From Candidatus Hydrogenedentota bacterium (lineage in GTDB: Bacteria; Hydrogenedentota; Hydrogenedentia; Hydrogenedentales; JAJRTN01), in the NCBI GenBank assembly GCA_024278275.1, contig JAJRTN010000045.1, forward strand, positions 14,560 to 78,559: a stretch of DNA of 64,000 nucleotides, in the 5' to 3' direction. The stretch's first letter is position 1. Every line of letters begins with the position of its first letter. The notes beneath the pieces were generated by a model. That model was not told where the DNA came from, did no database searches, and saw nothing but the letters and a program-made list of their open reading frames with translations. Below are positions 25,938 to 57,538 of the stretch, in pieces. The translations under genes and the position numbers were made by a program.

Positions 25938-26936
25938 CTAATCCTCGTAATAGTACCGTTCGCCGGTGGACTTTATCTCCAGGGCGATGCCGTGGCGGCG
26001 GACGGCGATGAGCGTGGCCTCCGACCCGGCAATGCGCTCGCCCACGTAGACCTTCTCCATGTTGATAATCGCGTGGGCGTAGGGCCGGTCGGGGCTGGGC
26101 TCCTTGAGCATGTTGATGGTCATGTTCTCAAGCCCGTAGCGCCGCTTCTCCGTCTCCCGCAGGGGGGGCAACTTGCGGATGTCATCGGGGAGGGGGCGCT
26201 CCCGGGGTTTTTCTGGAACGGGACCAGGACGGGATGGTTTGGGCGCGGGGGGGGCCACACGGGCCACTCGCAGGGGGGCGGGCGTCGCGGACGCGGCGGA
26301 CGGCGCGGGTTCCACGTTTCGTGGTACCGGTGACGGCGCGGGCGTTACGACGGCCGGGGCCGCTCCGCCCGTGGTAAACTGCACCGTTACAACGGTGGGC
26401 GCGGCGGGTTGGGGGATTACGGCCTGCGGAACCGGCGATGGAGGCGCCGGTTGAGCCGACGGGGCGGCCGGGGCCGGCGTGGGCGCCGGACGCGGGAGGG
26501 GCGCGGGTGTCGTGGTCTCGGATACGGGGTGCGGCGCGACCGGAACCTCATGCGGTTGCACCGGCGTTGAGACGGGCGGCGGCTCCATGGGCGCGGGGGG
26601 GGATTTCGGGGCGGATACGGCGGCCAATGGCCCGCCGGGGGCCGGTGTTTGTTGCGCTTCGGCGCCATTGCCTGTTCCGGCCAGTTTCAGGGCCAGCACC
26701 GTGGAGACGGTCAACATGGCGGTAAGCAACACGGCACCGCTGGCGACATAGAGCCAGGGGGAAACCTGGCGTTTGCCTCGGCGGCGGCGTTCCAGGGCGG
26801 CTTCGGCGGTCTTTACGTCCATTCCCGCGGGCGGCGCGGATGACACGGGCGACAGGTCGGGCCGTGGGTCCGCGCCATTGTCTTGGGCGGCCCGCTCGGC
26901 TTCGACTTTTCGTAGTGCGTCGAGAATGGAACTCAT
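25938..26936 (-). CDS. Proline-rich bitopic membrane protein, GspB/ExeB-like candidate (partner of GspA)
   Basis: Short cytoplasmic N-terminus, one TM (WLYVASGAVLLTAMLTVSTVLAL), ~200-aa Pro/Ala-rich periplasmic linker and a ~70-aa C-terminal globular domain. Located in-operon 2 genes downstream of the GspA-like ATPase. The GspB assignment rests on position and architecture. Confidence 0.4.
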   Translation of the reverse strand: MSSILDALRKVEAERAAQDNGADPRPDLSPVSSAPPAGMDVKTAEAALERRRRGKRQVSPWLYVASGAVLLTAMLTVSTVLALKLAGTGNGAEAQQTPAPGGPLAAVSAPKSPPAPMEPPPVSTPVQPHEVPVAPHPVSETTTPAPLPRPAPTPAPAAPSAQPAPPSPVPQAVIPQPAAPTVVTVQFTTGGAAPAVVTPAPSPVPRNVEPAPSAASATPAPLRVARVAPPAPKPSRPGPVPEKPRERPLPDDIRKLPPLRETEKRRYGLENMTINMLKEPSPDRPYAHAIINMEKVYVGERIAGSEATLIAVRRHGIALEIKSTGERYYYED

Positions 26937-26952
26937 GGTCTACCTTGGTCCG

Positions 26953-28023
26953 CTATTGTTTTCCGTCAAACCAGTAGGTTTGAAACGCTTCGAAGGCGGA
27001 GGCCAGGGCCTCCACATTCTCCGGGGGGGTGGGCGGATAGATGCCCGCTACCAATTCCAGGCCGCCGGCGGGATCGCCGAGGGTCCGGACCTCCTCCTCG
27101 ACCAGTTCCCGGATCTCGGTGGGCGTGCCGTAGGGCACGGTGGTCTGCCGGTCCACGTCGAGGCTGATACAGATACGCCCCTTCAGTTCACGGCGCAGGT
27201 TCTCGATTCCGTTGCACAAGTCCTGCGGATTGATAATGGTCACGCCCGCCACGATAAGATCGTCCAGCAGATCCATGATATAGCCGTCACTGTGCAGGTA
27301 GACCTGCTTGCCCCGCGCGCGGCAGGGTGCGATAAGCCGCTCGTAGACGGGCTTGCAGTAGCGGCGAAACATGGCCGGGCTGATGATGGAAGCGTTCTGC
27401 GAACCCAAGTCTTCCGCCAGGCTGATCATGTCCACGTCCGCGTCGAGATACTCCTCGACAATCGTCTTGTTGTGTCCATACAGGGCTTCGACGAGTTCGT
27501 CCAGCCGGGGCTCCTCGGTGGCCATGTCGATCATCAGGTTCTCAAAGCCCCGCAGATAGGTAAGCCGCATGAAATGGAAGCCATGGGGCGGCCCGCCTGC
27601 CGCCAGTTGCCCGGCGGCCTTGCTCCGGGCCAGGTTTTCCCGGATCCACGCCCAGTCCACGGGGCCCCGATCGCCCGTCTCCAGGGGATCGGGCACACGG
27701 TAGTTGGACCACGCCTCCCAGGAGGCCAGGGGGTGGCGCGTCACCACGCCTTCAATACCGTTCATGGGGGTTTCCCACACGCAACCCCACGCATCGGTGA
27801 AGGGCTCGCCCACCTGGTGGGCGGGGCCGAAGCGGAAATGGTCATAGTCCCGCTTTCCGGGCACGAAGTCCGGCCATAAGCGGGGGTGGCGGGCCACGAC
27901 TTCCTCGAGGTCATGGCGCAACTGGTCCCAACTCGCGTTCGAGATATGAAGCCCCACCGGCATGTATTCCGGATGCTCAAACGATGCGTTCCGCAGGTAG
28001 TTCTCGCGTGGACTCAGCCCCAT
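26953..28023 (-). CDS. Uroporphyrinogen decarboxylase (URO-D) family protein (paralog 2), embedded between gspA-like and gspB-like genes
   Basis: 356 aa, URO-D/MtaA-like fold and paralogous to 8569-9627. Intergenic gaps to neighbours are only 2 nt and 16 nt, so it is predicted to be co-transcribed. Confidence 0.7.
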   Translation of the reverse strand: MGLSPRENYLRNASFEHPEYMPVGLHISNASWDQLRHDLEEVVARHPRLWPDFVPGKRDYDHFRFGPAHQVGEPFTDAWGCVWETPMNGIEGVVTRHPLASWEAWSNYRVPDPLETGDRGPVDWAWIRENLARSKAAGQLAAGGPPHGFHFMRLTYLRGFENLMIDMATEEPRLDELVEALYGHNKTIVEEYLDADVDMISLAEDLGSQNASIISPAMFRRYCKPVYERLIAPCRARGKQVYLHSDGYIMDLLDDLIVAGVTIINPQDLCNGIENLRRELKGRICISLDVDRQTTVPYGTPTEIRELVEEEVRTLGDPAGGLELVAGIYPPTPPENVEALASAFEAFQTYWFDGKQ

Positions 28024-28025
28024 GC

Positions 28026-30218
28026 TCAGTTTTCCTCGGGGGTTGGCGTGCCGTCGGCGCCGCCATCGTTCCCGGTTTGGCCGTCGGTCAAAGGTGGTAT
28101 GCCGGGGGCCGGTGCCGTACGCTCCTTGAGATCCAGGGGACTCAGCGGACCCAGGCCGGTGGGAAAAAAGGGTACGTCCAAGTCCTCAATCGAAAGCAGG
28201 TTCGTGTCGTCAGCAACAGGGAATCCGGATGCCTTTTCCGACTCCGTCGCGGGTGCTTTGGCGGTCTTCACCTTTTCCGAAGGTGTCGGTGTTGGCCCGG
28301 TCTTCACCTTTTCCGAAGGCGTCGGGGTTGGTCCGGTCTCCGGGGCTTTGGGTTTCGGCGGGACCGGCGACGACGGCGGATTCGCCCGGGCGATGGTTTC
28401 CAGCGCTTCGGGCCGGTCCTCGCCGGGCACCGCCCGCTTGAGCGTGGGCGAACCCGTTCCGGGCAACCAGCTATTGAGCACCATGCGCACCTGGCGTCCC
28501 GCGATCCCATCGACAATCAACCCGGTCTCCGCCTGGAGCTTGGATACGGCCCCGGCGGTGTGAGAGTCGTATCGGTCGTCTCGGGCTCCTTCTTCCAGGC
28601 GGTGCAGAAGGCGGAGGTTGGCCTTGAGAGCGGCCACGTAAGGCCCTTTACGGCCCAACATCATGTCGGGGGCCTTCGGGTCTTTATCACGCCACAGGAC
28701 AATGGCCTCATCGGCGTAGGCATCCAGAATCTCCCCCCGAGGCGCTTCCACCACCTTATCGCCCTCGGCGGTCAGCCACAGGCGATCATCGTCCGCGCCA
28801 ACCAGGGCGACCCAGTAATCCCGTGAAGCCGATCCGGTTTTGCCGGGCCGAAGACGGATCAGGGCGGGAAGATCCAGGGCTACCAGTTGACTCAACGCGG
28901 GCCGAATACGTTCGTGCTTGAGTCCCAGCTCCCCGGCCAACGTCACCAATTCCCTGTCGCTGGCGGGCAAAGCGCGATCCTCGGGAAGGGTAACATCCCA
29001 AATGCGCAGCAAGGTGCGGCTGGCGGAACGGCACGCGGTTTCCGGGTCCGTGGCCAACAGCGCTTCCCCCAGCGGGATCGTTTCGCCGGGCGCTTTCTCC
29101 GGCTCCTGCGCTTTTCGGGTTACGGACACTTCCGGGGTTTCCGGCGGATCAACCGTTTTTTCCGGCGACGTGTTGTCCCGGGTCTTGGCATCCGCAGCGG
29201 GCGTCACCGGATCGCCTGGACGCGCGACCGGTACCCCGAGGGTCGCCACATCGCGGAAAACGCGGACCCCATCCACGATCTCGCCCAGGACGGGGCCGAA
29301 CTGTTGGACGAGGAAATAGGCCAACACGAGCGCCAGCAATAAGGCGGGACTCGGCAGCCAGCGCCAACGGGAAAGGCCGGCACGTTTCTTTTTGCCCGTC
29401 CTTATCTTCTCACCGCGAATTTCGACGGCCGCCTTCTTCACGATGGCCGCCGTGATGATGTGGGCTTCCCGGGTATAACCGATGAGCAACGCGCGGTCGC
29501 AGATGGCGTTGATCATGCGGGGAGTTCCCCCCGAGTGCTTGTATATTTGCCGAATGGCGGACCGGTTGAATCGCACGCTCCGCCGTCCGCCGGCGGTATG
29601 AAGGCGGTACGCCACGTATTGCAGCGTTTCCTTCTCGCTCAGTTCCTTGAGGTGATACCGGGCCGTGATGCGCTGGTTGAGCTGGCGCAATTCATGGAGG
29701 GCAAGCATTTCGCCCAATTCCGGCTGACCCACCAGCACGATCTGGAGCAGTTTTTCCGTTTCGGTCTCCAGGTTCGAGAGGAGACGGATCTGTTCCAACA
29801 CCTGGGGCGAAAGATTCTGTGCCTCGTCGATAAGCAGCACGCAGTTCCGGCCCCGGGTCTTGGCTTCGAGCAGGTAAACGTTAAGCTCCTCGACCAGGTC
29901 GAGCACATTATCCCCCACGGGGGTCAGCCCGAATTCCGTCAGGATCTTGCGGATGAGCTCCACCGGCTTGAGCGAGGGATTAAAGATGAAAGCCAGTTCC
30001 GTGTCGCTGTCAAGCTGGCGCACCAGGTTACGGCAGATGGTCGTTTTGCCCGTGCCGATCTCGCCGGTGACCATGACGAAACCCGAACCGCTCTTGATGC
30101 CATAAAGCAGGTGGGCAAAGGCCTCCTTATGCTTCTCGCTCAAGAAGAGGTATTTGGGGTCGGGCGTGAGGTTGAACGGCTTTTCGCTCAGCCCATAGAA
30201 GGCCTCGTACATGACCAC
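28026..30218 (-). CDS. gspA: GspA/ExeA-like AAA+ ATPase with TM segment, periplasmic peptidoglycan-binding domain and Pro/Thr-rich repeat tail
   Basis: N-terminal …LSEKPFNLTPDPKYLFLSEKHKEAF…GFVMVTGEIGTGKTT…CVLLIDEAQNL… is the ExeA/MshM-type AAA. TM WRWLPSPALLLALVLAYFLV. PG_binding_1-like YDSHTAGAVSKLQAETGLIVDGIAGRQVRMVLNSW. ORF-track start 30218 is GTG. An ATG at 30212 has RBS GAGGTG. Confidence 0.8.
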   Translation of the reverse strand: MVMYEAFYGLSEKPFNLTPDPKYLFLSEKHKEAFAHLLYGIKSGSGFVMVTGEIGTGKTTICRNLVRQLDSDTELAFIFNPSLKPVELIRKILTEFGLTPVGDNVLDLVEELNVYLLEAKTRGRNCVLLIDEAQNLSPQVLEQIRLLSNLETETEKLLQIVLVGQPELGEMLALHELRQLNQRITARYHLKELSEKETLQYVAYRLHTAGGRRSVRFNRSAIRQIYKHSGGTPRMINAICDRALLIGYTREAHIITAAIVKKAAVEIRGEKIRTGKKKRAGLSRWRWLPSPALLLALVLAYFLVQQFGPVLGEIVDGVRVFRDVATLGVPVARPGDPVTPAADAKTRDNTSPEKTVDPPETPEVSVTRKAQEPEKAPGETIPLGEALLATDPETACRSASRTLLRIWDVTLPEDRALPASDRELVTLAGELGLKHERIRPALSQLVALDLPALIRLRPGKTGSASRDYWVALVGADDDRLWLTAEGDKVVEAPRGEILDAYADEAIVLWRDKDPKAPDMMLGRKGPYVAALKANLRLLHRLEEGARDDRYDSHTAGAVSKLQAETGLIVDGIAGRQVRMVLNSWLPGTGSPTLKRAVPGEDRPEALETIARANPPSSPVPPKPKAPETGPTPTPSEKVKTGPTPTPSEKVKTAKAPATESEKASGFPVADDTNLLSIEDLDVPFFPTGLGPLSPLDLKERTAPAPGIPPLTDGQTGNDGGADGTPTPEEN
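28263..28334. repeat. Tandem 2 x 36-nt direct repeat (33/36 identical) encoding TGPTPTPSEKVK x2 in GspA-like tail
   Basis: ggtcttcaccttttccgaaggtgtcggtgttggccc / ggtcttcaccttttccgaaggcgtcggggttggtcc. Confidence 0.7.
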
Positions 30219-30501
30219 CTCGCGAAGGGATCCTGCCAGTAATCTGTTGACTGATTAGCCTACCATCTTACGGTCCCGGAATCAACCAATGATCCGCACA
30301 ACCCTACCGGCGACGGGGGTTTAGCAAAGTTTCCGCCATGGCGGCGGAAGCGCCTTGTCACGGTTGTGCGATATAGTCCTTTACCCGTGAAGGCCTGTAC
30401 AAATGCTCATGAAATCGTGTTTGCCGCCGCGGCCCACCGTCATCCCCCGCGAAGGGGGGGCTCCATGGGTAGGGGAAACGCCCTGCCCGTTCCCGTGGAT
30501 G

Positions 30502-30518
30502 CCCGCGTGCGCGGGAAT
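30502..30518. repeat. Palindrome CCCGCG-TG-CGCGGG followed by AAT; second copy of the CGCGGGAAT-type motif
   Basis: Lies in the 354-bp gap between gspM and gspA-like. Compare 18741-18760. Confidence 0.45.
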
Positions 30519-30572
30519 AAGGGCAGGCATGGTGTATGTGAACGATGCCCGGTGGGTTTTTCAAACACCTTT

Positions 30573-31088
30573 CTACACCTTAAGCGTGGCAAAGGTCACC
30601 GAACAGAGGAGGCCTTTCTCACCTGACGCGGGGCGTATCCACATCTCGCGCATAACCACCAAGTCCTTGTGGTCATGCACCCGGTGCAGGAACTTCACGA
30701 CCTCCCCGAGTGATACGCCCTCCAGTGAGACCTTGACGGCAGGCTGGTTCTCGTTGCCCCGGCGGCGGCTGGTCACGTTGTCGATACGTGCGCGATCCTT
30801 CAGCCGCGATTCCGCCAGGGCCTTATCGAGGAAGGCGTAGAGGTCGAAAGAGGGACTGCGCCCCTGAAGCCGCTGCTTGAGCGCCTCCTGACTGCGCAGG
30901 CGGATCCGCTCCTCGTCTCGCGCGTCGCGGGTGAGTTGAAGCTCGTGCCGTTTCCGGGCCACTTCGCGCCGTGACCGTTCGTAGTCCTTGCGCGGTCCGG
31001 CGGGGATATAGGCCAGCAGGGCCAGCACCAGCAGAAAGGCCACCCCGCCAAAGAACAGGCCGGCCTTTTCACGACGGTCAAGATTCAT
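30573..31088 (-). CDS. gspM: Type II secretion system protein M (GspM)-like
   Basis: 171 aa, bitopic (TM GLFFGGVAFLLVLALLAYIP), last gene of the gspC-M series. Overlaps the gspL stop by 11 nt. Confidence 0.55.
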   Translation of the reverse strand: MNLDRREKAGLFFGGVAFLLVLALLAYIPAGPRKDYERSRREVARKRHELQLTRDARDEERIRLRSQEALKQRLQGRSPSFDLYAFLDKALAESRLKDRARIDNVTSRRRGNENQPAVKVSLEGVSLGEVVKFLHRVHDHKDLVVMREMWIRPASGEKGLLCSVTFATLKV

Positions 31089-32541
31089 GGTCCGCGCCCT
31101 CCTTCCTGTCTTCGGGGCGGAAAGCTATGATGGTGAATGCCGTCGTGTTCCCCTTGGTGCTTTTCCGGGGCTCATCCCGAATTGTAAAGTATGGCGAATT
31201 GGCCAGGTCCTGGAAAACCTGGTTGAACACGGCCACATCGTCGGTATTTCCCTCGATGGTAAGCCAGCCGGCCTTGGCACCGGGGGGAGAAAACTTGATG
31301 CTTGTAATATGTACTTTACGGTCGGGCATTTTGCGGCTGATCTCCGCCAGCAGATCCAGCGTCACGGGGGCGTTGAACATCTCGGTGTCCACGTCCACGC
31401 CGATACCTCGGGACTCCAAGTCCGCAATTTCATCGTTAATCGCCTGAATTTGCCCGTCAAGAGCGGCGATTTCCGCGTTATTCGAACGGATGCCCAGTTC
31501 GTAGTATCCCACCCAGCAGATCAAGGCCAACAATGCCAGGCACGAGGAAAACATGAGGTGGGCGATTACACCCCGCAAAGCGCCCTCGGCTCCCTGCTCG
31601 GCACGAATGAAATCCAGGGCGAAAGGCCCGCCCAGCGCGCCGGCGGCCGCCCCGCAGAGTCCCTCCCAAGTGTTTCCTTCCGCCGTGCCGGGGTCCTCTC
31701 CGAGCACTTTCACCGCCCCACGCAAGGCGGGCAACATCACTTCGGACTCGACCCGCATGTCGAGCGCCCGGGACAGGACGTCCGACTCGGCGGGGTCGAG
31801 CGCAACGCCCGTCACATGCAACGTATCCAGTTCCGCGTCGCCACGCCACCGTGCCAGAAAGGCGCGCAGGGTGTTCTGCACCTCGCGGGCAACCGCCCGG
31901 GGATCTTCCCGCAACGTATCAACCCCGCACGGGATATGTCGAAAGTAGGCCAGCCCGCCATGGTAGAGAATGACGAGGTTCGATCCCGTGGCCCCGGCGT
32001 GCAATACGGCCGCAAGCCCCTTCGGCATGCGACGACCCGCGGCCCACAGCCCGGTGAGGGCGGGCGCGTCAAGGGTCACCGCGTCGGCAACGACACCGGC
32101 GGCCTTGAGCCATTCCAACTGTTCATCCACCTGCTGACGGCGAACCCCCATGGCGAGCACTTCCGTCTCGCCATCGAACTCGGCCACGGGTTTGAAATCC
32201 AGCAACAGCTCGTCAATGGGAAAGGCGAGGTAGGGCTCCAGTTCGAACTGCACGGCCGCGGCCACGCGGCGGCGGCCACGAAAGGGAATGGTGAGGGCGC
32301 GCACGATGCCATATTGACTGCCCAAGCAAAGAACGAAAGCGGCGGGCCGGTGTTTCAGCCCGTCCAACAGCCGCTCGATGGCGGCCACCGTTGCCTCCGA
32401 ACGCTGCTCGGGGTCCCCGCCGTTGATGGGCTCGACCAGCAAATCAAGCACTTTGGGCCGCCTGCCGCCGGTCTTGACGACGGCCAGGCGTACAACGCTC
32501 TCGCCTATCTCGATGGCGGCCAGCTTTACGCTAAACAACAT
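31078..32541 (-). CDS. gspL: Type II secretion system protein L (GspL): cytoplasmic actin-like (PilM-like) domain + TM + periplasmic PilN-like domain
   Basis: N-terminal MLFSVKLAAIEIGESVVRLAVV… (actin-like ATPase fold start), TM HLMFSSCLALLALICWVGYY, periplasmic C-terminus. 487 aa. Confidence 0.7.
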   Translation of the reverse strand: MLFSVKLAAIEIGESVVRLAVVKTGGRRPKVLDLLVEPINGGDPEQRSEATVAAIERLLDGLKHRPAAFVLCLGSQYGIVRALTIPFRGRRRVAAAVQFELEPYLAFPIDELLLDFKPVAEFDGETEVLAMGVRRQQVDEQLEWLKAAGVVADAVTLDAPALTGLWAAGRRMPKGLAAVLHAGATGSNLVILYHGGLAYFRHIPCGVDTLREDPRAVAREVQNTLRAFLARWRGDAELDTLHVTGVALDPAESDVLSRALDMRVESEVMLPALRGAVKVLGEDPGTAEGNTWEGLCGAAAGALGGPFALDFIRAEQGAEGALRGVIAHLMFSSCLALLALICWVGYYELGIRSNNAEIAALDGQIQAINDEIADLESRGIGVDVDTEMFNAPVTLDLLAEISRKMPDRKVHITSIKFSPPGAKAGWLTIEGNTDDVAVFNQVFQDLANSPYFTIRDEPRKSTKGNTTAFTIIAFRPEDRKEGADHES

Positions 32542-35959: not shown

Positions 35960-36010
35960 GGAACCTTCCTGTCTTGGCAACCGTTCACGGAGAACTCGCC
36001 CCTTTCGGTG

Positions 36011-43700: not shown

Positions 43701-43729
43701 AAAGGCAGATCGGGATGAGATTGAGGGGG

Positions 43730-49200: not shown

Positions 49201-52200
49201 TGGGGTCGTCCAACCCGTCGGCAAAGCCGTAACAGACCGAGCCGAAGGACGATCTCGAACCCCTTCCGAAGAAAATATCGGCTCTGAAGGCATACTCCGA
49301 ATCCGACTCATAGGTCAGGGTCAGATCGTGGACGTCCACCGTGCTGCGAAGCGGCTTGGCCGCGCTCGCGTTATGGGTCCGCTGGGGCCACCAAGGCTCC
49401 ACCGCCCCCCACTGCGGGTAGTCCTGCCAGGGCGCCCCGAAGAAATCGGGGTAGGCCAGGGAACCCTGCGCGGGGATCATACTGCTCAGATAGATTCCAC
49501 CGTCCTCGTGGCCAAAGCGGGCGTTGAAGCGCCGCGGCTCGATGAACACGCGGAAGTCCGCGCCGGCGGTAATGCCTCCCCCCGTGTTGGGTCCCATGGA
49601 GATATCCTGATAACCACTGTCGGTGCGGATAACCAGGAAGTAGTCAAATGTCCACGAACTGATGGGATCGGTGAAAACATTATCCGGCGTCGGCTCGAGG
49701 AAACCCGCCACGTTGGTTTCGTCCTCGGTCTCGGCGAGGGGCCGCCGCTCGCCGAAGATGAATTTCATTTTGAGTTTCCACCACGGATCACCACCGCCCG
49801 GAGGATTGGCGATATATTCCCAGCCCTGATCCTGGAAGAAGCTGCTCCCCATGCCAGGGAACATGGGCCGGTCGGTAAAGGTGATGCCGCCGCCGGGCAC
49901 CTGGGTGGGCGGATCGAAGATCCCGTTGTTGTTTGTATCGGACCACACCCAAACGCCGTTGAACGAGAAGTCATGTTCCAGGACCGGCTCGTACGTGGGA
50001 TACTCGTCGTAAGTGATCTCGTTCATACCGGTGATGGGATTGAAACCACCGTTGCCGGGCGGCCCCAGGGGATCCGCGCCGATGTCGGTCATGATCACGT
50101 TCACCTCGCGCAGCTCCGCCGCGGGACGATCCGCGAAAATAGTCCGGAAGCCCACATCGGGATCATATTGGTCGAAGTGGAGCGATTTGGTGGAGTGGAT
50201 GTTCAGGCCCAAAACGGGGAACCATGCTTCCATGGGCACCAACTGACGGATACGCAGGAACTCACCCGAGAAGCTGTCCAGCAACTGGTCGAAAGCGTTC
50301 CAGCGTGGCCGTGTAAACTCGGCCACCGGCGTGTACATGTAGTGCGGGGCCGTCCAGGTATTCACCATCCCCAGGCCATCCTGGATCAACGGCGTACCAC
50401 GCATCTCGAAAACGGAAAAGCTGGAAGCGTAAGCGTCGGTGTTCTCCAGGATTTCACCCGTCAGGAAATCCGGCGTGTAGCTGTCCAACGGTGCGCCGTC
50501 ATCACCCAGGGGGAAGTTGCCGTTAAGCGTCACCATTTGGGCGAAGAGGGCATCGGCGCTCATGGTAAGCTGACTGCGCCACGTGGCGGATGTCCGCACC
50601 GCGAGGACGTAAGACGCACCGTCCACCGTGTTGTCCACGTCCGGAGCGGCCGTGATATTCACCAGCGGCGTCCCCGTGTCATCGAGGAAATTGAGATCAT
50701 AGCTGATGAATCCGTCGTTCCCCGTGGCCACGCCGTAAGGCGCGCCGTCGTTGGCCCAACGGGCAATGAGCACGTCGAAGTCACTTAACACACCATTGTT
50801 GGCATCATCGCCACCGTCAAAGACTTCCCGGAACAGGCCGAATTCAAGCAGATCGCTCTGGTCCGGACCACCGGCGTTCAGGTAACCCAAATCCCTGCTG
50901 CTGTCATCATCACCATGAATGATGTACCGCAGGCGGGCCAGGTTGCGCGGCGCGGGCGCATCCACGCCATAGTTCATGGTGAAACGAAGCAGGGGCACCC
51001 AGTCACACAGGGGCACCAGCGCTTCACGGTCGCGAACGGCGGATTCGATGGTGAAGTTGGCCGGATCGGTCGCGATCTCGCCCTCGCCCTCACCCTCGGC
51101 GCCTCCCGCGAGAATCACCTGCACGTAGTCCTGGCGAACACGCTCGTTACGAACCAACTCGCCCGTACCGCTCTCGCGGAAGGTCACCTCCAAGGTCACC
51201 GTGTAGAAGCCGGGAGCGGTATAGAGGTGAGTCGGGTTGGCCTGGGAAGATTCGTCACCCGTGGACTGATCACCAAAGTCCCAGAAATAGGACTCGATGG
51301 CATGGTTCGGCCCGGGGTCGGTCTCGGCGCTGCTGAAACTGACCGCGGCGACACCGTTGGCCAGGGTCACCACCAGGGGTTGCGCGCTGAAATCGGCAAA
51401 GGGCGTCTCGATGATCTCGATATAATCATCCTTGAAAAGGGTGATCTCCGTCCCGAAGCGATCCACGATGGTCACGCTGACCGAATAGACCCCGGTCTGC
51501 CCGTAGACATGGGTGGGACTCTGCTCGAAACGGTCGTCGCCCGTGCTGCCATCGCCAAAGTCCCACGTCACGGTACTGATATTCTGGGGCTGGTTGCTGA
51601 GGATCTGGAAGGCCACCTCCTCGCCGAGGGCCTGCCGCACCGGCGTGGCCTCGAAATCGAAGGTCGGCGTTTCAAGCGCTGTAATCGGGGCGGTACGGGC
51701 AAACTTGTTCGGGTTGGTGCGCACCCAGTAACGGATGTTCGGATCCCGGTCGTCCTGGCTGTGATCCACTTCCTCGGCGGGCACGAAACGCTGTGCCTCG
51801 TAACTGTAGGTCCAGTTATAGACCGGGGGCGGATCCTGGAAGAAAGAGATCAGACCGATCCCGCGCGCGCCCCAGGGGAATTCGGAGAAGATATCGAACT
51901 CGTCTTCGCGCTGCTGCCGAAGATCGCCCGGCTCCAGGGTGACCGAGAAATTATCCGGGTCGGGTTCGGTCGGCGTGTTGGGTCCCCACGAGACGATGGC
52001 CGCGGCGAAATCATCACCTTGGCTCATCAACAACGAGGGACGTACCACGACGAAGAAATCGGGGCCGTAGGCATCCTCGGAGATGGTCCGCCCGAAGGTC
52101 TGGGGAATCACCTGGCGGAGCCTCGGCTGGGTCTCGTAGGGCACTACCGGTTCGGGACGGCCCACGATGTTGTCGGTGCCGGGCGAGGAGAAGACCATCT

Positions 52201-55200
52201 TGACCTGGTACTGGGGCTCCCCGGCGCGCCCGATGCGGATGGGCGGATCGTCGAGCCGCACGGGCAAGTCGATATACTCCACCACCGCGCCCGTATCGGG
52301 ATCCAGCACGGGCGGATCAAAGACACCGTTGGTGTTCAGGGGATGGAGATCGTTGTCACGATAGAGCGACACACCGCTCCGGAAACCCCGAACCGGGTCC
52401 TCGTAGTTCAGTTCGAGGAAGTCCACCGGCAGGCGGAACTGGCCGTCCCGGCCCACGTCATAGAATTCGACAATAACCTGCTCCAGGAAGGTCGGGTCCT
52501 TCACCACATACCACTCGCTGCCCGCGCGGGGCGCGCCGGCGAGGAGGGTCAACGTATTACCGGCAACACCCGTGATCTGGAAGGCCTCCACGGCATCCAC
52601 CGCGTTGAGATCATAGGCCGCTTGCTTGCCCGTGTCCCCCGTCACCTGGTTCAGGCCGACAAGCCACAACCCCACCCAACCGTCGGGCGTGCCGTGCGGA
52701 TCAGCCGGATCGGTAATACCGGTCTCGTAATCGGTGATCTCGAACGTGTTGACCCCGGCGATGGTCCCCACCCCGGAGCCCCGGGCAATCAGGTTGTCCG
52801 GACGATTGTTGGACAGGTCAAGGCCCAACACGGCCACGGGCGGACCGCCCGGGGCCACGGCCGGCGTACCGGCGGGAGTGACCTCGAGGGAACCTGTCAG
52901 ATCCAGAATGCGGGTCGGAACATTGGCCTGCGCCATGTCATGGCTGTAGAAGTCCTGCACCGCGCCCTCGTCGGGATTGCTCTTCTGGTAACTATTCACC
53001 ACGGTGTAGGCAAACGGGGCCAGTTGAATGCCGCCATGACCGCTTACCACGGGGTTGGGCGGCACACTGCGCTCCGGCAGGCGTGCCGGGACAACACAAC
53101 GGAACTGCTCGAACGCGGCGATATCACCGGAGGTGCGCACCACGACGAAAAGATCGTCGCCTTCCGAACCGCCGGCCGCCAACGCCTTGGTGTTCGTGAC
53201 GGAATCCGGCACGGAAGCCAGGTCATACAGGCTGGGCTGGGCCGTCGAATAGAACGGACTGGCCAGCGCCTTCTCGGCGGGGCTCGCCCCGGCGATGGGC
53301 GGCGCGGCACCCGGCGGCGTCGATATGGGCGCGCCGGTCCGGCGGTCGGACTGGGGCAGGTTCCACGTTCCACGGGGCTGCAAGCGCAACACCCACGCCA
53401 AGTCGCTCAGGCCGTCCCAGCGGGCGGCCTCCGCGCCGGTAATCTCCCCGTTCGCAATCGCGGTTTGCACGAGGGCATCAATCTCGGAAGGCGTCAGCCC
53501 CGCCACCTCGTGGAGGAAGACCACGCCGTCACCGCTCATGTCGTCGGCAACATCGTCCCCGTCCAGATCGATGGCCTCGGGGCTTTGCGCCCACTGAAGC
53601 GTACCCGGCTCCAACGGTACAATCGCGTCGGTAAGGGCGGGTACCGGCGAGAAATCAAAGAACACCGGCGGGTTATACACGCCGCTGGCATTGGAATCCT
53701 CGTAAAGCAACACACCGGAAGTCACCTGCGTGCCATTGGGATCGAGGGCCGCTAAATCACGCCGGTCGAAATCCGGTCCCCAGAAGGCGATGGTGATGCT
53801 GTCGAGGGACACGCTGTTGTTCTGGTTCACGATGAAGTCATCCGTGCCCGCCAGGTTGATACCCAGCATGGCCATGGGCTCGGACTCGGCTTCAACATGC
53901 TGTTTCAGCAGACGCGCGGCACGGGCGCCCTGGTCCTCGGGCTTCACCGGGAAGTTCGGCTCATGCAGCGGGAGCGCACCACCGATGCGCGGGCTCAACC
54001 CCGCCTTCCAGTCAGTGGCATGGGGATAGGTGCCGCGCGGCTTGGCCACGTCGGTCACGGCCCAACGACCGCGGGAAATGGCGAAATCCTCGCCTTCCGG
54101 CACACCAAAGGGCCAATCCGGCAGGTTCAGCACGCCGTCGGGGTAGACGGCCAGCGTGGCCGGACGGTCCGGGAAGCGCGCGAACTTGTCCATGTAGGCA
54201 TTGTGCCCGCGCATCAGGAAGAGGGTGTTCCCATTGTTCCCGGTGATCTTGTAGCGGTTGCCCGCGCGATCCACGAGCCACTTGCCCGCGAGGGTATCCA
54301 CCCCCGAAAAAGCGCCGTCCTCGAGAACAAAGGCATACACGTCATCCGAATAGGTGGATTCGGAATCGGGCGAGGTCGGGATGGCATAGGGTTCGTTGGT
54401 CACGCCTTCGTCGTAGAGGTAACAGTAACTCTCCTCGCCCCAGGCCAGGGCAATCGTGTTCAGCGGCCAGGACGTATCAAAGGCCAGGTAGTCCCGCGTA
54501 TCACGGAAGCGCGGCAGGGTCGGCTGTTCGGCGGGTTCGGGGTAGAAACTCGACCGGGGGTAGGTGGCCTGGCCGTCGATGGCGTCCGCGGTCAGGTCAA
54601 AGGGCACCGTCTCGTAAGCGTACTGGATCGCTGTAAGCGCGTCGTCGCCCGTCAGGTTCTCGGAGACATCCCGTTCCACGCCCACGGAAGCCGGGGGCGT
54701 AAAGCGGCTTTGCAGCATACCGTATTTGATCAACGTCGGCGGAACGTCCGGACCGAGGGTGTCGAGAATCGGCGGATCAACCCACAGCGAAAAGAGCGTT
54801 CGCCCAACAGACAAATCGGTATTGGGCACGGGAGTCGGCGGATTCTGGGCGATATTGATATAGGTTTCCTTGGCAAACACGTTGTTCGTGCTGTAGGTCA
54901 GCACCAAGTCGTGAATCTCGATCCCCCCCTGCTGTATCTTCGCGTTGTCCCGGTTCAGCGAACGCTCGGTCCACCACGGCTGGGGCGCCATGAAGACGGG
55001 CACGCAATTGTCCGGCGTGCTGCAATCCATGGTGATGCTGGTTTCGTCGCGGGCAGGGTTATCCTGTCCAATCACCCCCACGGGCGCAGGAATGTCGGAA
55101 CTGAAAAGGATGCCGCCGTCGTTATGGCCGCCATGAAGCGGGTTCCACCGGCGCGGCTCGATGAAGGCCCGGAAATCCGCGCCCACGGGCAGCCCCGTAC

Positions 55201-57538
55201 CATCCCCCTGCAACCCGGAAATATCCCGGAAACCGCTGTCGGGACGAAGCGTCACGAAATAGTCGGCCTGGGGCTGGTTCCCACGCAAGCCGGGGGGAAA
55301 GAAATCCGGGAGCGATTCCAGGCCGCCCGTGCAGCCCTGGCCGGACTGCAGATGACCACCGCCCGAGAAACGAAGACGGATCTTCCACCACGGGTCGCCG
55401 CCACCCGGCGGGAAGGGAATGTATTCCCACTCGAAAAAGGTGCCATCCACGAAATCCGATCCCGTACCCTGATCCAATATGCCGCCCGGACGCATGGGGA
55501 AATCGTTGAAATCGACACCCACGCCCGTGGGACTGGGCGGGTTGAAAATGCCGTTACCGGGACAATTAGACGGATTGCCCGCGGCGTCCGGGCAGTTTGA
55601 ACCACCGTCATTGTCATAGAACATCCAGGCACCGTTAAAGGAGTAATCGTTTCCGACGGCATGTCCCTGTCCCCCGTCCGCGGCCGTGGTCATCTTCTCG
55701 AGGCCCTCGGTCGGCTCAAAGCCCCCGTTACCCGGCACCGCGAAAGGATCGCCGCCTACGTCGGTAACGATGAGGTTCACTTCCGTCGGCCCCGTGTAAC
55801 AATCGCCGTGGGCGTTAATGGCGATCACGGGCACCCACGTCTCGACGGAGAAAATGCGCCGAATGTCCAGGAACTCCCCGGTCAGCGCCTGCACCATGGT
55901 GTTCGAAATATCCCAGCGCGGGCGAAAATGCTCCCGCCGGGGAGTGTACATGCGGATCGGCCAATTCCACGTGTTGCGGTCAAAGCCCGGACGATAACTG
56001 AAATCGCCCGTGTTGTTCCCGGATACATCCCATAGGCCGAAATTGGAGGTATAGCCCACATCCTCGGAAAGGGGAAAATCAGGATAGTCGTCGATGGGAG
56101 CCAAGTCGTCCGGGTTGATGGGAAAGTTGCCGACGGTCACGGGATCGTTCGCTTCGGGCCCCTCCCCGCCCAAGTCCGCGGGCGGATCGGGGGCGAAGGG
56201 CAGCATGGTGGCGCCAAGCACGGTGTAGGAAATGCCGGTGCCCGAGGTCCAACTGGAGGAGGTCCGAAAGGCCAGTATGTACGAATTATTGGGGGCGGGC
56301 CCCGCGGTCATCCAGCTTCGCGTCCGGGTCGGCACCCCGGTGACCTCGTCAATGTGGGTCCGGTAAAACGGCAGTTGGGGATTGTTCAGGTCCAGCGGAA
56401 CCGCCGCGTTGAAGGTGGGGTCGTGGGGGTTGAAAACAAAGGACAGGTTGTAGTCCAAGTCCCCGTAACTGAACGCACCCGTCGCGTCGGGCGTATCGTA
56501 GGGGTAGCCATGACCGTTGAAAACGACGACCGGCACCCGTGAATCAAAAAAACTTGTCGGAAGGCGAATATCGAGCAGGTCATCCGGCTCACCCTGGGGA
56601 CCGCTGTTCCGGAAGATGGCGAACTCCAGGATATCGGATTCCTGGGGCCCCACCAAACTGGATGAATTGCCACGGACGACATGGTCGCCGTCGATCCTGA
56701 AGTGCAGGTTGGCCAAGGCCCGGGGAGCCGGGGGGTTGTCGGGGTTGTAGGTCATGTCAAAGCGAAAAAGGGGCGTCCAGTCATTGAAGGGCAGCAGGGC
56801 CGCACCGTCCCGCGCGCCAATAAGGTCGGTAACGGCGAAGGTCGCCGGCTCCGGGGCCTCGCCTTCCCCCTCTCCCTCGGCCGCTTCGGTGACCGTAAGC
56901 GTGCCTACGCTGACCGGGCCGTCGGGCGGGCACACGAGCTCCACGTCCGGGTTCTCGGCGTGAACAATCAGCACCTGCATGGCCACATCGTAGTCACCCA
57001 CGATATCCAGGGAGAGATCCAGGCCAACGAGATCCTGGGGAAGAATGGTCAGGGTCGCGTCGTCAAAGAGAACCGTCTCGTACACCGTGGCGTTACCGTT
57101 GGGATCGGTGATGGTCCACTCGATGCCGGCCACGTTGGCGGGAATGCCCGCGGGAATGTCCTGCACATCGCCATACAGGGTGACGTTAAAGACGGTAGGC
57201 CCCGTGGTGTCCGGGTCGGCGGCGAAACCCAGTTGATACATATCGCAGGTAATCACCTGGCTCAGCAGGGCGGACTGAACCATGAGCCCCGCCAGGGCGC
57301 TGCCGGGGGCGGCGGCCAGTTGCAGGGGCGCTTCCGCGGCCGGAGGCGCCTCGGGCAGCAGTTCCAACATGGCCTCCGTCACGGACGCCGTGCGTGTCTC
57401 TGGGGCGGGCGCCCCATCCTGTCCCCCCCGTTCCGCGGCAATGGTCCGCGCTTGTTGCCCGGGGAGAACCCCGATCATCCCGATCGTCACGATGGCCGCC
57501 AGGGCCACGCTCACGAAGGCACCGTGTTTCATGCTCAC
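46253..57538 (-). CDS. Giant (3,761 aa) secreted repetitive protein: signal peptide, two ~1,600-aa diverged tandem duplications, 2 PKD domains, 2 IPT/TIG-like domains, C-terminal sorting-signal-like tail
   Basis: N-terminal signal peptide. AEGEGEGE-initiated units share colinear motifs: PPGGGDPWWK(I/L)…, AMLGINLAG(T/V)DD…AFWGPDF, IDLDGD…DD…GDGV, FEQFR…VPA(R/T)LP, PTFLEQ(V/L)IVE(F/L)YD, GIVSWGPNTP(T/S)EPDPD. PKD signatures WDFGDGS…PTHVYG…GVYSVSV and WDFGDQS…PTHLYT…GFYTVTL. C-terminus …GIGCAAGSAESGAGGDLIALMAVLALLLGACRAKMRNKA. Confidence 0.8.
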   Translation of the reverse strand: MSMKHGAFVSVALAAIVTIGMIGVLPGQQARTIAAERGGQDGAPAPETRTASVTEAMLELLPEAPPAAEAPLQLAAAPGSALAGLMVQSALLSQVITCDMYQLGFAADPDTTGPTVFNVTLYGDVQDIPAGIPANVAGIEWTITDPNGNATVYETVLFDDATLTILPQDLVGLDLSLDIVGDYDVAMQVLIVHAENPDVELVCPPDGPVSVGTLTVTEAAEGEGEGEAPEPATFAVTDLIGARDGAALLPFNDWTPLFRFDMTYNPDNPPAPRALANLHFRIDGDHVVRGNSSSLVGPQESDILEFAIFRNSGPQGEPDDLLDIRLPTSFFDSRVPVVVFNGHGYPYDTPDATGAFSYGDLDYNLSFVFNPHDPTFNAAVPLDLNNPQLPFYRTHIDEVTGVPTRTRSWMTAGPAPNNSYILAFRTSSSWTSGTGISYTVLGATMLPFAPDPPADLGGEGPEANDPVTVGNFPINPDDLAPIDDYPDFPLSEDVGYTSNFGLWDVSGNNTGDFSYRPGFDRNTWNWPIRMYTPRREHFRPRWDISNTMVQALTGEFLDIRRIFSVETWVPVIAINAHGDCYTGPTEVNLIVTDVGGDPFAVPGNGGFEPTEGLEKMTTAADGGQGHAVGNDYSFNGAWMFYDNDGGSNCPDAAGNPSNCPGNGIFNPPSPTGVGVDFNDFPMRPGGILDQGTGSDFVDGTFFEWEYIPFPPGGGDPWWKIRLRFSGGGHLQSGQGCTGGLESLPDFFPPGLRGNQPQADYFVTLRPDSGFRDISGLQGDGTGLPVGADFRAFIEPRRWNPLHGGHNDGGILFSSDIPAPVGVIGQDNPARDETSITMDCSTPDNCVPVFMAPQPWWTERSLNRDNAKIQQGGIEIHDLVLTYSTNNVFAKETYINIAQNPPTPVPNTDLSVGRTLFSLWVDPPILDTLGPDVPPTLIKYGMLQSRFTPPASVGVERDVSENLTGDDALTAIQYAYETVPFDLTADAIDGQATYPRSSFYPEPAEQPTLPRFRDTRDYLAFDTSWPLNTIALAWGEESYCYLYDEGVTNEPYAIPTSPDSESTYSDDVYAFVLEDGAFSGVDTLAGKWLVDRAGNRYKITGNNGNTLFLMRGHNAYMDKFARFPDRPATLAVYPDGVLNLPDWPFGVPEGEDFAISRGRWAVTDVAKPRGTYPHATDWKAGLSPRIGGALPLHEPNFPVKPEDQGARAARLLKQHVEAESEPMAMLGINLAGTDDFIVNQNNSVSLDSITIAFWGPDFDRRDLAALDPNGTQVTSGVLLYEDSNASGVYNPPVFFDFSPVPALTDAIVPLEPGTLQWAQSPEAIDLDGDDVADDMSGDGVVFLHEVAGLTPSEIDALVQTAIANGEITGAEAARWDGLSDLAWVLRLQPRGTWNLPQSDRRTGAPISTPPGAAPPIAGASPAEKALASPFYSTAQPSLYDLASVPDSVTNTKALAAGGSEGDDLFVVVRTSGDIAAFEQFRCVVPARLPERSVPPNPVVSGHGGIQLAPFAYTVVNSYQKSNPDEGAVQDFYSHDMAQANVPTRILDLTGSLEVTPAGTPAVAPGGPPVAVLGLDLSNNRPDNLIARGSGVGTIAGVNTFEITDYETGITDPADPHGTPDGWVGLWLVGLNQVTGDTGKQAAYDLNAVDAVEAFQITGVAGNTLTLLAGAPRAGSEWYVVKDPTFLEQVIVEFYDVGRDGQFRLPVDFLELNYEDPVRGFRSGVSLYRDNDLHPLNTNGVFDPPVLDPDTGAVVEYIDLPVRLDDPPIRIGRAGEPQYQVKMVFSSPGTDNIVGRPEPVVPYETQPRLRQVIPQTFGRTISEDAYGPDFFVVVRPSLLMSQGDDFAAAIVSWGPNTPTEPDPDNFSVTLEPGDLRQQREDEFDIFSEFPWGARGIGLISFFQDPPPVYNWTYSYEAQRFVPAEEVDHSQDDRDPNIRYWVRTNPNKFARTAPITALETPTFDFEATPVRQALGEEVAFQILSNQPQNISTVTWDFGDGSTGDDRFEQSPTHVYGQTGVYSVSVTIVDRFGTEITLFKDDYIEIIETPFADFSAQPLVVTLANGVAAVSFSSAETDPGPNHAIESYFWDFGDQSTGDESSQANPTHLYTAPGFYTVTLEVTFRESGTGELVRNERVRQDYVQVILAGGAEGEGEGEIATDPANFTIESAVRDREALVPLCDWVPLLRFTMNYGVDAPAPRNLARLRYIIHGDDDSSRDLGYLNAGGPDQSDLLEFGLFREVFDGGDDANNGVLSDFDVLIARWANDGAPYGVATGNDGFISYDLNFLDDTGTPLVNITAAPDVDNTVDGASYVLAVRTSATWRSQLTMSADALFAQMVTLNGNFPLGDDGAPLDSYTPDFLTGEILENTDAYASSFSVFEMRGTPLIQDGLGMVNTWTAPHYMYTPVAEFTRPRWNAFDQLLDSFSGEFLRIRQLVPMEAWFPVLGLNIHSTKSLHFDQYDPDVGFRTIFADRPAAELREVNVIMTDIGADPLGPPGNGGFNPITGMNEITYDEYPTYEPVLEHDFSFNGVWVWSDTNNNGIFDPPTQVPGGGITFTDRPMFPGMGSSFFQDQGWEYIANPPGGGDPWWKLKMKFIFGERRPLAETEDETNVAGFLEPTPDNVFTDPISSWTFDYFLVIRTDSGYQDISMGPNTGGGITAGADFRVFIEPRRFNARFGHEDGGIYLSSMIPAQGSLAYPDFFGAPWQDYPQWGAVEPWWPQRTHNASAAKPLRSTVDVHDLTLTYESDSEYAFRADIFFGRGSRSSFGSVCYGFADGLDDPTDFDRWMDPFGLLRSQFLNLHSVGVTYWSVFGSLSIPLSAGDAGIGNGINFTYDESWQYAYETVPFLNSLDGDNRSSAYATPPFQPNMPAYATWPALLAPGEYPRASDWPLEETQARLLTQKIDVDSNQTAMLGINLAGVDDIIVNGRQEPSLAKITLAFWGPDFTPDDLAPLDPDGSDLDSGILLWEDADQNGVFFTPGPIADYADALPVFDAFDDVVPLRNLQWASSPEPIDLDGDGAPDDLNGDGVADSNDLAWVVEIEPGEVWPLPHNDNLTTGIAFNFILRWCVGANFFGGTKEAEALQKQLSTIEAEILQSGGPDEKALDPAVDQGGDDLFITVKTSDKARRFEQFRVLVPATLPSRRPEERQAGIQFFPEINTSPSAYTKTSPDEDPVQDFYGHDMMEVNVPHHILNLTNATQKLTIGGAAMAVMGVDASTNRPDATLATGDAGVGLPAGFTAVGAAWAEDEFAGDWLVDKEYHAFEIVSNTVDQLSLRFGTPAEGPWRIVRDPTFLEQLIVELYDQGANGNFNPVTDLLPLSIDPRISGLALYRDNDNDPRNRNGIFDADIDLPVELDVAPFFSGVSGESTQVKFVFSTPGTDDVPVPMAQQTNHRQWIPDSFGRRTTDPDHGAEFFLVIRASDTMEENDDFRVGIVSWGPNTPSEPDPDTWARLSGGDRDGYKQFEEFNWGSRGLGFISFFKEPPTRYFMDGNEARQRPDTSGINWVRSHSAKKQRSGVIEARKKPLSPVSVVIDGVSETALPAQTLPGEPFEFVIRGRGFGSDPEVLLSGYDVVITAATDNTIDVTISSRIDEPPVEPIILIVKNPATREETVRSDLFSLVGGSTQDGPKVIRVEPDRGTQAVFPVVVHGANFGGEGSLSVYFGDTEMQVLNVAGDGSWVNVGFPAGGISKTGPLDVTVRDESKGKEDVLVNGFEYLNSPDIPGIGCAAGSAESGAGGDLIALMAVLALLLGACRAKMRNKA

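Follow-up and report, generated by a model that had tools for sequence, protein, structure and literature searches.

A giant-protein/metzincin-NTR gene cassette conserved across Hydrogenedentota and frequently linked to type II secretion genes

We analyzed a 64,000-nucleotide stretch of contig JAJRTN010000045.1 from a Candidatus Hydrogenedentota bacterium (positions 14,560 to 78,559; hereafter the window), which encodes a giant Sec-exported protein, a metzincin-like membrane protein, a type II secretion system (T2SS) and two genes resembling gspA and gspB. A first-pass annotation had read the 16 genes lying between positions 25938 and 57538 as a single candidate system dedicated to secretion and processing. 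We found that this block consists of three juxtaposed modules: a two-gene cassette encoding the giant protein and a bipartite protein that combines a metzincin with an NTR/TIMP-fold domain (57.9-43.7 kb), a canonical T2SS extending from gspC to gspM (43.3-30.6 kb), and an ExeA-like GspA with a GspB-like partner, between which a gene of the URO-D family is inserted (30.2-25.9 kb). The cassette, with its resemblance to matrix metalloproteinases (MMP) and to their tissue inhibitors (TIMP), is undescribed and represents the real point of interest of the locus, while the T2SS itself is ordinary. The explanation that we favor, with moderate confidence, is that the giant protein is a T2SS substrate retained at the cell surface by a Cys-type C-terminal anchor, and that the metzincin-NTR protein is its obligate inner membrane partner in a three-module locus. 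Coordinates below are those of the window, and features are on the minus strand unless otherwise indicated.

The linkage between these genes was examined in 69 orthologous loci, namely 68 from a pattern scan of species-representative genomes plus three from exact-protein look-ups, minus one duplicate and one spurious locus, and all window proteins were compared with them by tblastn. Each of the 60 assessable loci had a homologue of the giant protein encoded directly 5' of the metzincin-NTR gene, at 30 to 54% protein identity. With respect to the T2SS, 65 loci were assessable: 45 had gspC-D-E-F-G-H-I-J(-K) directly 3' of this pair and co-oriented with it, 19 had no gsp gene downstream, and one had a downstream but inverted T2SS; the other four of the 69 loci were not assessable. 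In the inverted case (L033, 11607-21337), gspM to gspD are convergent on the metzincin-NTR gene and directly 3' of it, with no gspC detected between. The converse scan, performed on metagenome contigs with a GspC profile, recovered about 20 independent gspC loci of the Hydrogenedentota type with a metzincin-NTR gene upstream. Several other loci of this type lacked the pair (L086/L087 and L113; no open reading frame [ORF] longer than 720 aa in the 10 kb upstream), and the pair was never present at more distant gspC loci. Because the pair occurs without gsp genes in 19 loci and gspC loci occur without the pair, the linkage to the T2SS is dispensable, although frequent and old; the pair itself is a tight unit. 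The synteny between putative cargo genes and gsp genes that the first-pass annotation had anticipated is thus borne out in most loci, but a minority shows the two apart.

Many of the metagenome-assembled genome records carrying the cassette are titled "uncultured Nitrospirales/Nitrospiraceae bacterium" (L006, L007, L013, L016, L018, L023, and others) and one "Candidatus Bathyarchaeia archaeon" (L026); such titles probably reflect placeholder or misassigned taxonomy, or misbinned contigs. A literature search on Hydrogenedentes and type II secretion returned passing mention only.

Within the window, the cassette looks like an operon of its own, separate from the T2SS, because a strong and recurrent terminator hairpin follows the metzincin-NTR gene. 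This intrinsic-terminator-like hairpin (43678-43701) has 10 pairs, 8 of them G-C, and a loop of 4, is followed by TTTATTTGT, and lies 29 nt past the metzincin-NTR stop codon. In our own scan, comparable hairpins were present 20 to 40 nt past this stop codon in roughly 20 orthologous loci, with or without gspC downstream. At the other end, a promoter-like site, TTTACA-16-TATACT (57884-57911), lies about 350 nt 5' of the giant gene and matches the consensus at 10 of 12 positions; it is a consensus match only, and such sites are not enriched over shuffled sequence in the region.

The giant protein (46253-57538) has 3761 aa (about 400 kDa) and consists of a signal-peptide-like N terminus, a first repeat unit, PKD domains, a second repeat unit, two IPT/TIG domains and a Cys-containing tail. 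An alignment of about 1650 columns shows repeat unit 1 (aa 220-1958; 51665-56881), which contains acidic motifs of the DLDGDGxADDxxGDG type, to be 33 to 38% identical to repeat unit 2 (aa 2147-3524; 46967-51100). The two units are linked by a pair of PKD domains (aa 1964-2145; 51104-51649; PKD_4, 88.6 bits; PKD, 61.9 bits). As the window protein is a two-repeat form with PKD linkers, a whole unit of 1.4 to 1.75 thousand residues has been duplicated in tandem. Among the orthologues, one-unit forms measure about 1700 to 2800 aa and two-unit forms about 3300 to 4300 aa.

Homologues of the giant protein were searched with a 790-aa segment, and a HMMER profile was built from trimmed repeat-unit sequences. 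Against 1.84 billion representative proteins, this profile gave 99 matches below 1e-30, the full-length ones falling in only about 60 clusters, and one sub-domain was also found in other giant, TIG-rich proteins. By these sequence searches, the family is essentially confined to Hydrogenedentota. Neither half of the repeat unit matched a PDB sequence at an E value of 1 or lower.

At its C terminus, the giant protein carries a tripartite tail (46256-46393), in which a motif and a transmembrane (TM) helix precede a cluster of basic residues at the very end: GIGC is followed by a 12-aa Gly/Ser/acidic spacer, the TM segment LIALMAVLALLLGA and CRAKMRNKA. A short tail of this kind, with (F/L)-G-C, TM segment and basic residues, is present in about 34 orthologues, while 22 others harbor at the same place a full CFI-box-CTERM domain (CFIATAAYG...), and all of them keep the Cys. 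The CFI_box_CTERM model scored 81.8 bits on one of these orthologues (L002; cut-off, 40), and PVV_CTERM scored 20.2 bits on another orthologue (L003), under its 27-bit cut-off. The loci whose giant protein has the CFI-box tail were T2SS-adjacent in 21 of 22 cases. We found no paper in a literature search on CFI-box-CTERM. The tail of the window protein itself matched none of the curated CTERM models (MYXO-, GlyGly-, PEP-, JDVT-, Synerg-, CGP-CTERM, etc.) at an E value of 10 or lower. The description of the giant protein as CTERM-tagged therefore stands as far as a conserved Cys/TM/basic tail and the CFI-box-CTERM of 22 orthologues are concerned, but no curated model fits the window tail. In agreement with the first-pass annotation, which had given signal peptides to both proteins of the cassette, giant orthologues with complete N termini begin with ordinary cleavable signal peptides with a conserved AxA, and the metzincin-NTR family likewise has a conserved N-terminal signal peptide with AxA.

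The second protein of the cassette is encoded by an 837-aa ORF that probably begins at MKGKQ (46153), yielding a bipartite membrane protein of 807 aa (43730-46153). From N to C terminus, it comprises a signal peptide, an MMP-like metzincin domain, a beta-rich middle, CFI-box-CTERM-like helices, a first TM segment (TM1), an RRR loop, a second TM segment (TM2) and an NTR/TIMP-fold domain. The zinc motif VHEIGHFLGLGH (HExxHxxGxxH; 45506-45541) is intact in the window genome, where it reads HEIGHFLGLGH. The Met-turn TPTM (TPTMYP in the window) does not vary among 29 aligned family members, in which the N-terminal signal peptide, DLAPDDISG, an invariant Cys (NDVCPLN), LRxFRD...YY..P, the TM1/Arg-rich loop/TM2 region and a C-terminal domain of about 180 aa are conserved as well. 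The Peptidase_M10 model (PF00413) reached 20.2 bits on the window protein, below its 24-bit cut-off. The assignment as a metzincin is hence supported by the zinc motif and the Met-turn, but the family model falls short of its threshold.

The CFI-box-CTERM-like segment (LRGFRDRYLL...YYRMSPAMARFLLRH; 44450-44596) scored 41.8 to 45.4 bits (cut-off, 40), with a match restricted to profile positions 18 to 66, and the invariant Cys sits 5' of it, beyond a variable Thr/Gly-rich linker. It is followed by the TM hairpin (44282-44416), in which TM1 and TM2 flank the RRR cytoplasmic loop and TM2 ends in AHA, a conserved A-x-A signal-peptidase-type site. All of about 80 homologues have such a TM2 end, with small residues at positions -3 and -1 (AHA, AQA, ASA, AFA, and similar). 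Since TM2 ends in this way, the C-terminal domain would behave as a second secreted protein fused behind the first one. This 183-aa domain (43733-44281) is an OB domain of the NTR/TIMP fold with two C-terminal helices, the fold being assigned from predicted structure. In Foldseek searches of the PDB with a full-length AlphaFold2 model (built on the full alignment; pLDDT, 66.5, i.e., moderate confidence), the top matches were MMP catalytic domains and NTR/TIMP modules; MMP-7, -12 and -13 were matched at E values of 4e-3 to 5e-2 and target TM-scores of 0.5 to 0.58, values that derive from a model with a pLDDT of 66. Cleavage at the AxA would plausibly leave the NTR domain with a free N terminus. 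The domain contains no Cys and so has neither the N-terminal Cys1 nor the disulfides with which TIMPs chelate zinc; the zinc-chelating N terminus of TIMPs is therefore not conserved in it.

We identified 83 homologues of the bipartite protein, nearly all full-length and 30 to 54% identical, and all of the named ones belong to Candidatus Hydrogenedentes/Hydrogenedentota. The zinc motif was intact in 30 of the 69 orthologous loci and degenerate in the other 39 (e.g., AHSVGHLLGLAY or VQSVGSLLGLGY). Among T2SS-adjacent loci, 26 had an intact and 19 a degenerate motif, and among nonadjacent loci, 1 and 18, respectively, counts that are uncorrected for phylogeny. Because the protein is conserved over its full length despite the loss of catalytic residues, proteolysis is not the core, conserved role of the family. 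Similarly, the TIMP-like domain is kept in lineages whose protease motif is dead, which argues that inhibition is not its conserved role. Comparison by eye of the N-terminal sequence of the NTR domain with the state of the protease motif gave no clean relation, phylogeny being a confounder. This membrane-anchored MMP-like/NTR protein, whose motif is lost in more than half of the loci and which the first-pass annotation had proposed as T2SS cargo, is no plain, soluble substrate.

Taken together, these data suggest the following scenario. The giant protein would cross the inner membrane via Sec, be retained there by its C-terminal TM segment, and then be processed or lipid-modified at the Cys motif. 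The adjacent T2SS would carry it over the outer membrane, and it would stay on the cell surface, as MYXO-CTERM and GlyGly-CTERM proteins do. The metzincin-NTR protein would act as its obligate membrane-bound partner rather than as free cargo. Signal peptidase probably cuts this partner after the conserved AxA, so that the MMP-like ectodomain would remain anchored on the periplasmic side and the TIMP-like domain would be set free in soluble form, with a new N terminus. In genomes with an intact motif, such as the one studied here, the two halves could work together as protease and regulator to trim the giant protein or release it, and in lineages with a decayed motif the pair would have to act noncatalytically, e.g., by serving as anchor, chaperone or docking factor. 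The bipartite protein resembles an ancient fusion of two secreted proteins, an MMP-like metzincin with a CFI-box-CTERM-type anchor and a TIMP/NTR-fold domain with an internal signal peptide.

Several observations weigh against this scenario. A terminator separates the cassette from gspC, so that coexpression with the T2SS is not guaranteed, and either partner of the linkage may be found without the other, as in the 19 pair loci and the several gspC loci mentioned above. A substrate of 400 kDa is unusually large for a T2SS. The window tail fits no curated CTERM model, and no CPBP/myxosortase, rhombosortase or exosortase gene was found in the window. On the side of the partner, the structural model is of moderate confidence, the NTR domain is devoid of the TIMP cysteines, and it persists where the protease motif is dead. 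Finally, secretion of the giant protein is predicted from gene context and sequence signals. The proposal that the two proteins are T2SS cargo can be kept as plausible for the giant protein, but its secreted-protease part is unsupported.

The main alternative is that the gene order reflects inheritance and not functional coupling. In that case, the giant protein and its partner would form a T2SS-independent envelope structure, such as a periplasmic or cell wall scaffold anchored in the inner membrane or a structure exported by another route, and the T2SS would secrete other proteins, e.g., glycoside hydrolases, which are common in Hydrogenedentota genomes. In line with this possibility, 19 of 65 assessable loci have the pair but no gsp genes next to it, T2SS loci exist without the pair, a terminator separates the two units, both proteins have inner membrane anchors, and no sorting enzyme is encoded nearby. 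However, the same order and orientation are kept phylum-wide down to about 30% protein identity, which is longer than neutral gene order usually lasts, and Cys/TM/basic tails typify proteins that eventually leave the inner membrane for display, a route in which a T2SS takes part in at least two cases. The near-constant T2SS adjacency of the CFI-box-tailed giant loci (21 of 22) also speaks for coupling. We therefore consider inherited order a possible explanation, but clearly a less probable one than secretion and surface retention of the giant protein by the T2SS.

We also considered a more specific version of the cassette's function. A single-polypeptide bacterial MMP/TIMP-like protease-regulator pair, split at an internal signal peptide into a membrane-anchored matrixin-like ectodomain and a released NTR/TIMP-fold domain, might control the maturation, anchoring or shedding of a T2SS-delivered giant protein that bears a new Cys/CFI-box class of C-terminal signal; we put this forward tentatively, as an idea less probable than the scenario from which it derives. 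If true, it would represent a fourth kind of T2SS-coupled C-terminal sorting system and a prokaryotic instance of the NTR module, which has been described mainly from animals.

The T2SS downstream of the cassette is canonical and essentially complete. Its identity follows from gspD, gspE, gspF and gspG scoring above NCBIfam equivalog cut-offs and from gspC and gspL scoring above Pfam cut-offs. The gspC gene, with the probable start MVRGLAIRRFF (42381-43295), encodes an HR region and a C-terminal PDZ domain and matched T2SSC at 41.6 bits (cut-off, 27) and the GspC_delta model at 89 bits, under its 150-bit cut-off. The secretin gene gspD (39805-42336) matched TIGR02517 (434.3 bits; cut-off, 351) as well as the Pfam domains Secretin, Secretin_N and N0, the ATPase gene gspE (38057-39802) TIGR02533 (680.7 bits; cut-off, 630), gspF (36821-38044) TIGR02120 (464.5 bits; cut-off, 424) and the major pseudopilin gene gspG (36142-36567) TIGR01710 (89.7 bits; cut-off, 88.85). 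The minor pseudopilins at the gspH, gspI and gspJ positions (35135-36076, 34614-35138 and 33784-34617) have prepilin N_methyl motifs, and their family models scored well below cut-off. Further along, gspK (32639-33787) matched T2SSK_1st at 56.6 bits and NF037980 at 126.3 bits against a 130-bit cut-off, gspL (31078-32541) has a PilM-like N terminus, a TM segment and a PilN-like C terminus (T2SSL, 26.8 bits; cut-off, 25.5), and the match of gspM (30573-31088) is weak (T2SSM, 23.7 bits against 27.8). The names of gspH, gspI, gspJ and gspM thus rest on the prepilin motif, weak subthreshold matches and gene order. No gene for the prepilin peptidase GspO or another A24 peptidase was found among the scanned ORFs of the window; the gspO gene is often sited elsewhere in the genome. 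The T2SS called by the first-pass annotation is accordingly real, and "complete" needs to be read as essentially complete, with four genes weakly named and GspO missing from the window. We rejected an identity as a type IV pilus on two grounds: the PilQ, PilB and PilC models were outscored by the GspD, GspE, GspF and GspG equivalogs, and the cluster includes a PDZ-containing GspC.

Two features of these proteins deserve mention. The GspD ORF opens with a Pro/Ala/Lys-rich low-complexity stretch of about 115 aa before N0, which reflects either an uncertain start codon or an unusual periplasmic linker. The N terminus of GspE carries an MshEN cyclic di-GMP (c-di-GMP)-binding motif (NF053729, 50.9 bits; cut-off, 38), and the window also encodes a 413-aa protein ending in an MshEN domain (6221-7462) and a PilZ-YkuD (L,D-transpeptidase) fusion (9697-11202, plus strand). 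Because these three proteins occur in one window, secretion and envelope remodeling may be controlled by c-di-GMP.

The third module begins with an ExeA/GspA-like protein of 730 aa (28026-30218) that has an AAA_22 ATPase domain (100.6 bits), a TM segment and a PG_binding_1 domain (31.5 bits), an architecture kept in more than 100 homologues. Its best NCBIfam match is the XrtA/PEP-CTERM-associated ATPase (304.8 bits, against a cut-off of 324.5). The GspB-like partner of 332 aa (25938-26936) has MSSILDALRK at its N terminus, then a TM segment and a linker rich in Pro and Ala, and ends in a conserved domain of about 80 aa; it matched no Pfam (T2SSB included) or NCBIfam model, even at E values of up to 1 to 10. 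Homologues located directly 3' of gspA-like genes in three other genomes (L072-L074) share the MSSILDAL(K/R)K N terminus, the TM segment, the linker and the C-terminal domain, the latter at 46 to 51% identity. We call this protein GspB-like because of its architecture and conserved adjacency to gspA, without support from a model. Between the two genes, separated from them by gaps of 2 and 16 nt, is wedged a gene of the URO-D/MtaA family (26953-28023), which is no secretion gene. A second paralogue of this family is found in the window (8569-9627, plus strand), and the closest relative (L075, whose GspA is 67% identical) has the insertion as well (9015-10085); it is absent in L072-L074.

The GspA/GspB-like pair is not near a T2SS in L072, L073 and L074, and gspA adjoins gspM only in this window. 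In the genome OW818658.1, about 1.8 Mb separate gspA (4.7 Mb) from the T2SS/giant locus (6.5 Mb). The upstream neighbors of gspA in L075 are a GH172 enzyme and a sigma factor rather than gspM, and in L076 the gspA-like gene is away from gsp genes, with no GspB-like partner called downstream. Since the module is not linked to a T2SS in these five genomes (L072-L076), its adjacency here is specific to this genome or lineage. Two distant T2SS loci of a non-Hydrogenedentota type, in which gspC is 23 to 25% identical, have a GspA-like gene (34 to 46% identity) about 1 to 2 kb 5' of gspC (L116, 7255-8916; L150, 7275-8084), so that linkage of GspA to the T2SS exists in other lineages, though it is not conserved in Hydrogenedentota. 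Just 3' of the gspB-like gene lies a GT2 gene (24174-25811) that has a full-length, 27%-identical homologue in OW818658.1 (L072, 14649-16238), two genes 3' of the GspA/GspB-like pair. Together with the best match of GspA, this GT2 neighbor hints at a possible connection of the pair with exopolysaccharide functions, and not with the T2SS.

The pair nevertheless resembles ExeA-ExeB of Aeromonas and Vibrio: GspA unites an ATPase of the AAA type with a TM segment and a PG_binding_1 domain on the periplasmic side, the partner has a short N terminus in the cytoplasm that is followed by a TM segment, a linker rich in Pro and a small domain at the C terminus, and the genes are conserved as a pair. It differs from ExeA-ExeB in that the partner fits no GspB/T2SSB model, the pair is split here by a URO-D-family gene, and the Hydrogenedentota pair is not T2SS-linked elsewhere. 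By analogy, it could plausibly assist this secretin. The gspA- and gspB-like calls of the first-pass annotation hence hold firmly for GspA but without model support for its partner, and the proposed ExeAB-type link to this secretin is not upheld by the five other genomes.

The 16 ORFs of the block are all on the minus strand and have coding-type G+C content at third codon positions (ORF listing with a GC3 filter), and gaps of more than 120 nt occur at 30219-30572, 36568-36820 and about 43296-43729 (counted from the probable gspC start, M65) and 5' of the giant gene, as the first-pass annotation had reported. Coding-type genes on this strand run from 19004 to at least 63504, however, past both ends of the block; co-orientation is therefore no delimiter of it. 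On the 3' side, down to 19004, these are five genes, encoding two GT2 enzymes, two acyltransferases and an alpha-L-fucosidase. The four on the 5' side, up to 63504, encode a DUF4340 protein, a GldG-like protein, an ABC-2 permease and an ABC ATPase. They form a gliding-motility-type ABC transporter module (57987-63504) directly 5' of the giant gene, and the same module is present 5' of the giant gene in at least two other loci (L029, 1-4036; L047, 8-2661), in which the flank is visible owing to shorter giant genes.

We can now consider the original one-operon model, in which all 16 genes form one secretion/processing operon, the giant protein and an active, soluble metzincin are both T2SS cargo, and GspA/GspB insert the secretin through peptidoglycan. 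The common strand and short gaps, the intact HEIGHFLGLGH of the window, the signal peptides of both proteins, the adjacency of the pair to gspC in 45 of 65 assessable loci and the peptidoglycan-binding domain of GspA are in line with it. In addition, the metzincin half, once cut at the AxA, would carry a C-terminal anchor of the CFI-box-CTERM type, as many giant orthologues do, so that the same sorting would be possible for both. Yet the metzincin gene and gspC are separated by the strong, recurrent terminator, the metzincin with its TM hairpin and NTR domain is no simple soluble substrate, its catalytic motif is lost in 39 of 69 loci, 19 of them T2SS-adjacent, GspA/GspB are unlinked to the T2SS in five other genomes, and one of the 16 genes encodes a URO-D-family enzyme. 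A single operon or system for all 16 genes is thus unsupported on several counts, and we regard this model as unlikely, more so than inherited gene order. Least probable of all is that the metzincin-NTR protein is a dedicated, universal sorting protease, i.e., a sortase analogue cutting the Cys or CFI-box anchor of the giant protein before secretion: it is paired with the giant gene in all 60 assessable loci, is membrane-anchored with its active-site domain facing the periplasm, and has a CFI-box-like segment that could recognize the same feature, but the catalytic His/Glu residues are lost in 39 of 69 loci, including most of those with a full CFI-box-CTERM giant protein, and the known enzymes for such tags are polytopic intramembrane proteases.

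Returning to the giant protein as a surface-retained T2SS substrate with an obligate membrane partner, we see several reasons why the cassette matters. T2SS substrates are hard to predict from sequence, and a cargo gene that stays next to gspC across most of a phylum would be a rare, testable substrate assignment in a lineage without a cultured model. The alternation of the short Cys tail with CFI-box-CTERM at a homologous position ties an uncharacterized NCBIfam sorting domain to a client protein and, through gene context, to a secretion system. The fusion of an MMP-like and an NTR/TIMP-fold domain with an internal signal peptide suggests an old origin or a convergent reinvention of the protease/NTR pairing, and a natural experiment is offered by the protease motif, which about 40% of species have in an intact and about 60% in a dead form.

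Among known systems, the closest to the proposed route of the giant protein are those in which proteins tagged with Cys or GlyGly at the C terminus are displayed on the cell surface in a T2SS-dependent way, as shown experimentally for MYXO-CTERM and GlyGly-CTERM proteins (bioRxiv 10.1101/2023.06.07.544157; PMC11980579). The cassette shares with the MYXO-CTERM/myxosortase and GlyGly-CTERM/rhombosortase systems a Sec-exported (here putative) cargo, a tripartite tail (a motif that here includes an invariant Cys, followed by a TM segment and a basic cluster), genes that adjoin or depend on a T2SS, and the large size of the presumably surface-exposed cargo and its richness in Ig-like domains. In contrast, the giant tail has a spacer of 12 to 20 aa between the Cys and the TM segment, matches no curated model, alternates in orthologues with the much longer CFI-box-CTERM and has no CPBP or rhomboid enzyme nearby. 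GlyGly-CTERM proteases, to which the first-pass annotation had appealed as support, therefore provide an analogy only: the giant tail fits none of the named CTERM models, and the window has no gene for a sorting enzyme.

With respect to the partner protein, the metazoan MMP/TIMP proteins and NTR modules (agrin NtA, PCOLCE, complement C345C, meteorin) differ in that sequence similarity to them is undetectable (4 to 17% identity). Unlike metazoan TIMPs, the window NTR domain is without Cys1 and the conserved disulfides, and two long helices follow it; any role as a metzincin inhibitor would be hypothetical. The nearest precedent is the Mtz/Tim gene pair of Listeria monocytogenes, which encodes a secreted metzincin and a TIMP-like lipoprotein (PMC8235301). 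The TIMP-like fold of Tim was assigned by Phyre2 with about 60% confidence, and the authors found no earlier record of bacterial TIMP-like proteins (PMC8235301). The two cases have in common the genetic coupling of a bacterial metzincin to a protein of TIMP-like fold, as well as separate export signals for the two moieties. However, the Listeria proteins are encoded by two genes on a phage-derived element of a Gram-positive bacterium, whereas in Hydrogenedentota one ORF joins the two moieties by a TM hairpin, whose second helix would serve as an internal signal peptide, and this version is chromosomal, phylum-wide, often endowed with a dead protease motif, and always located beside the gene of a giant, presumably surface-exposed protein.

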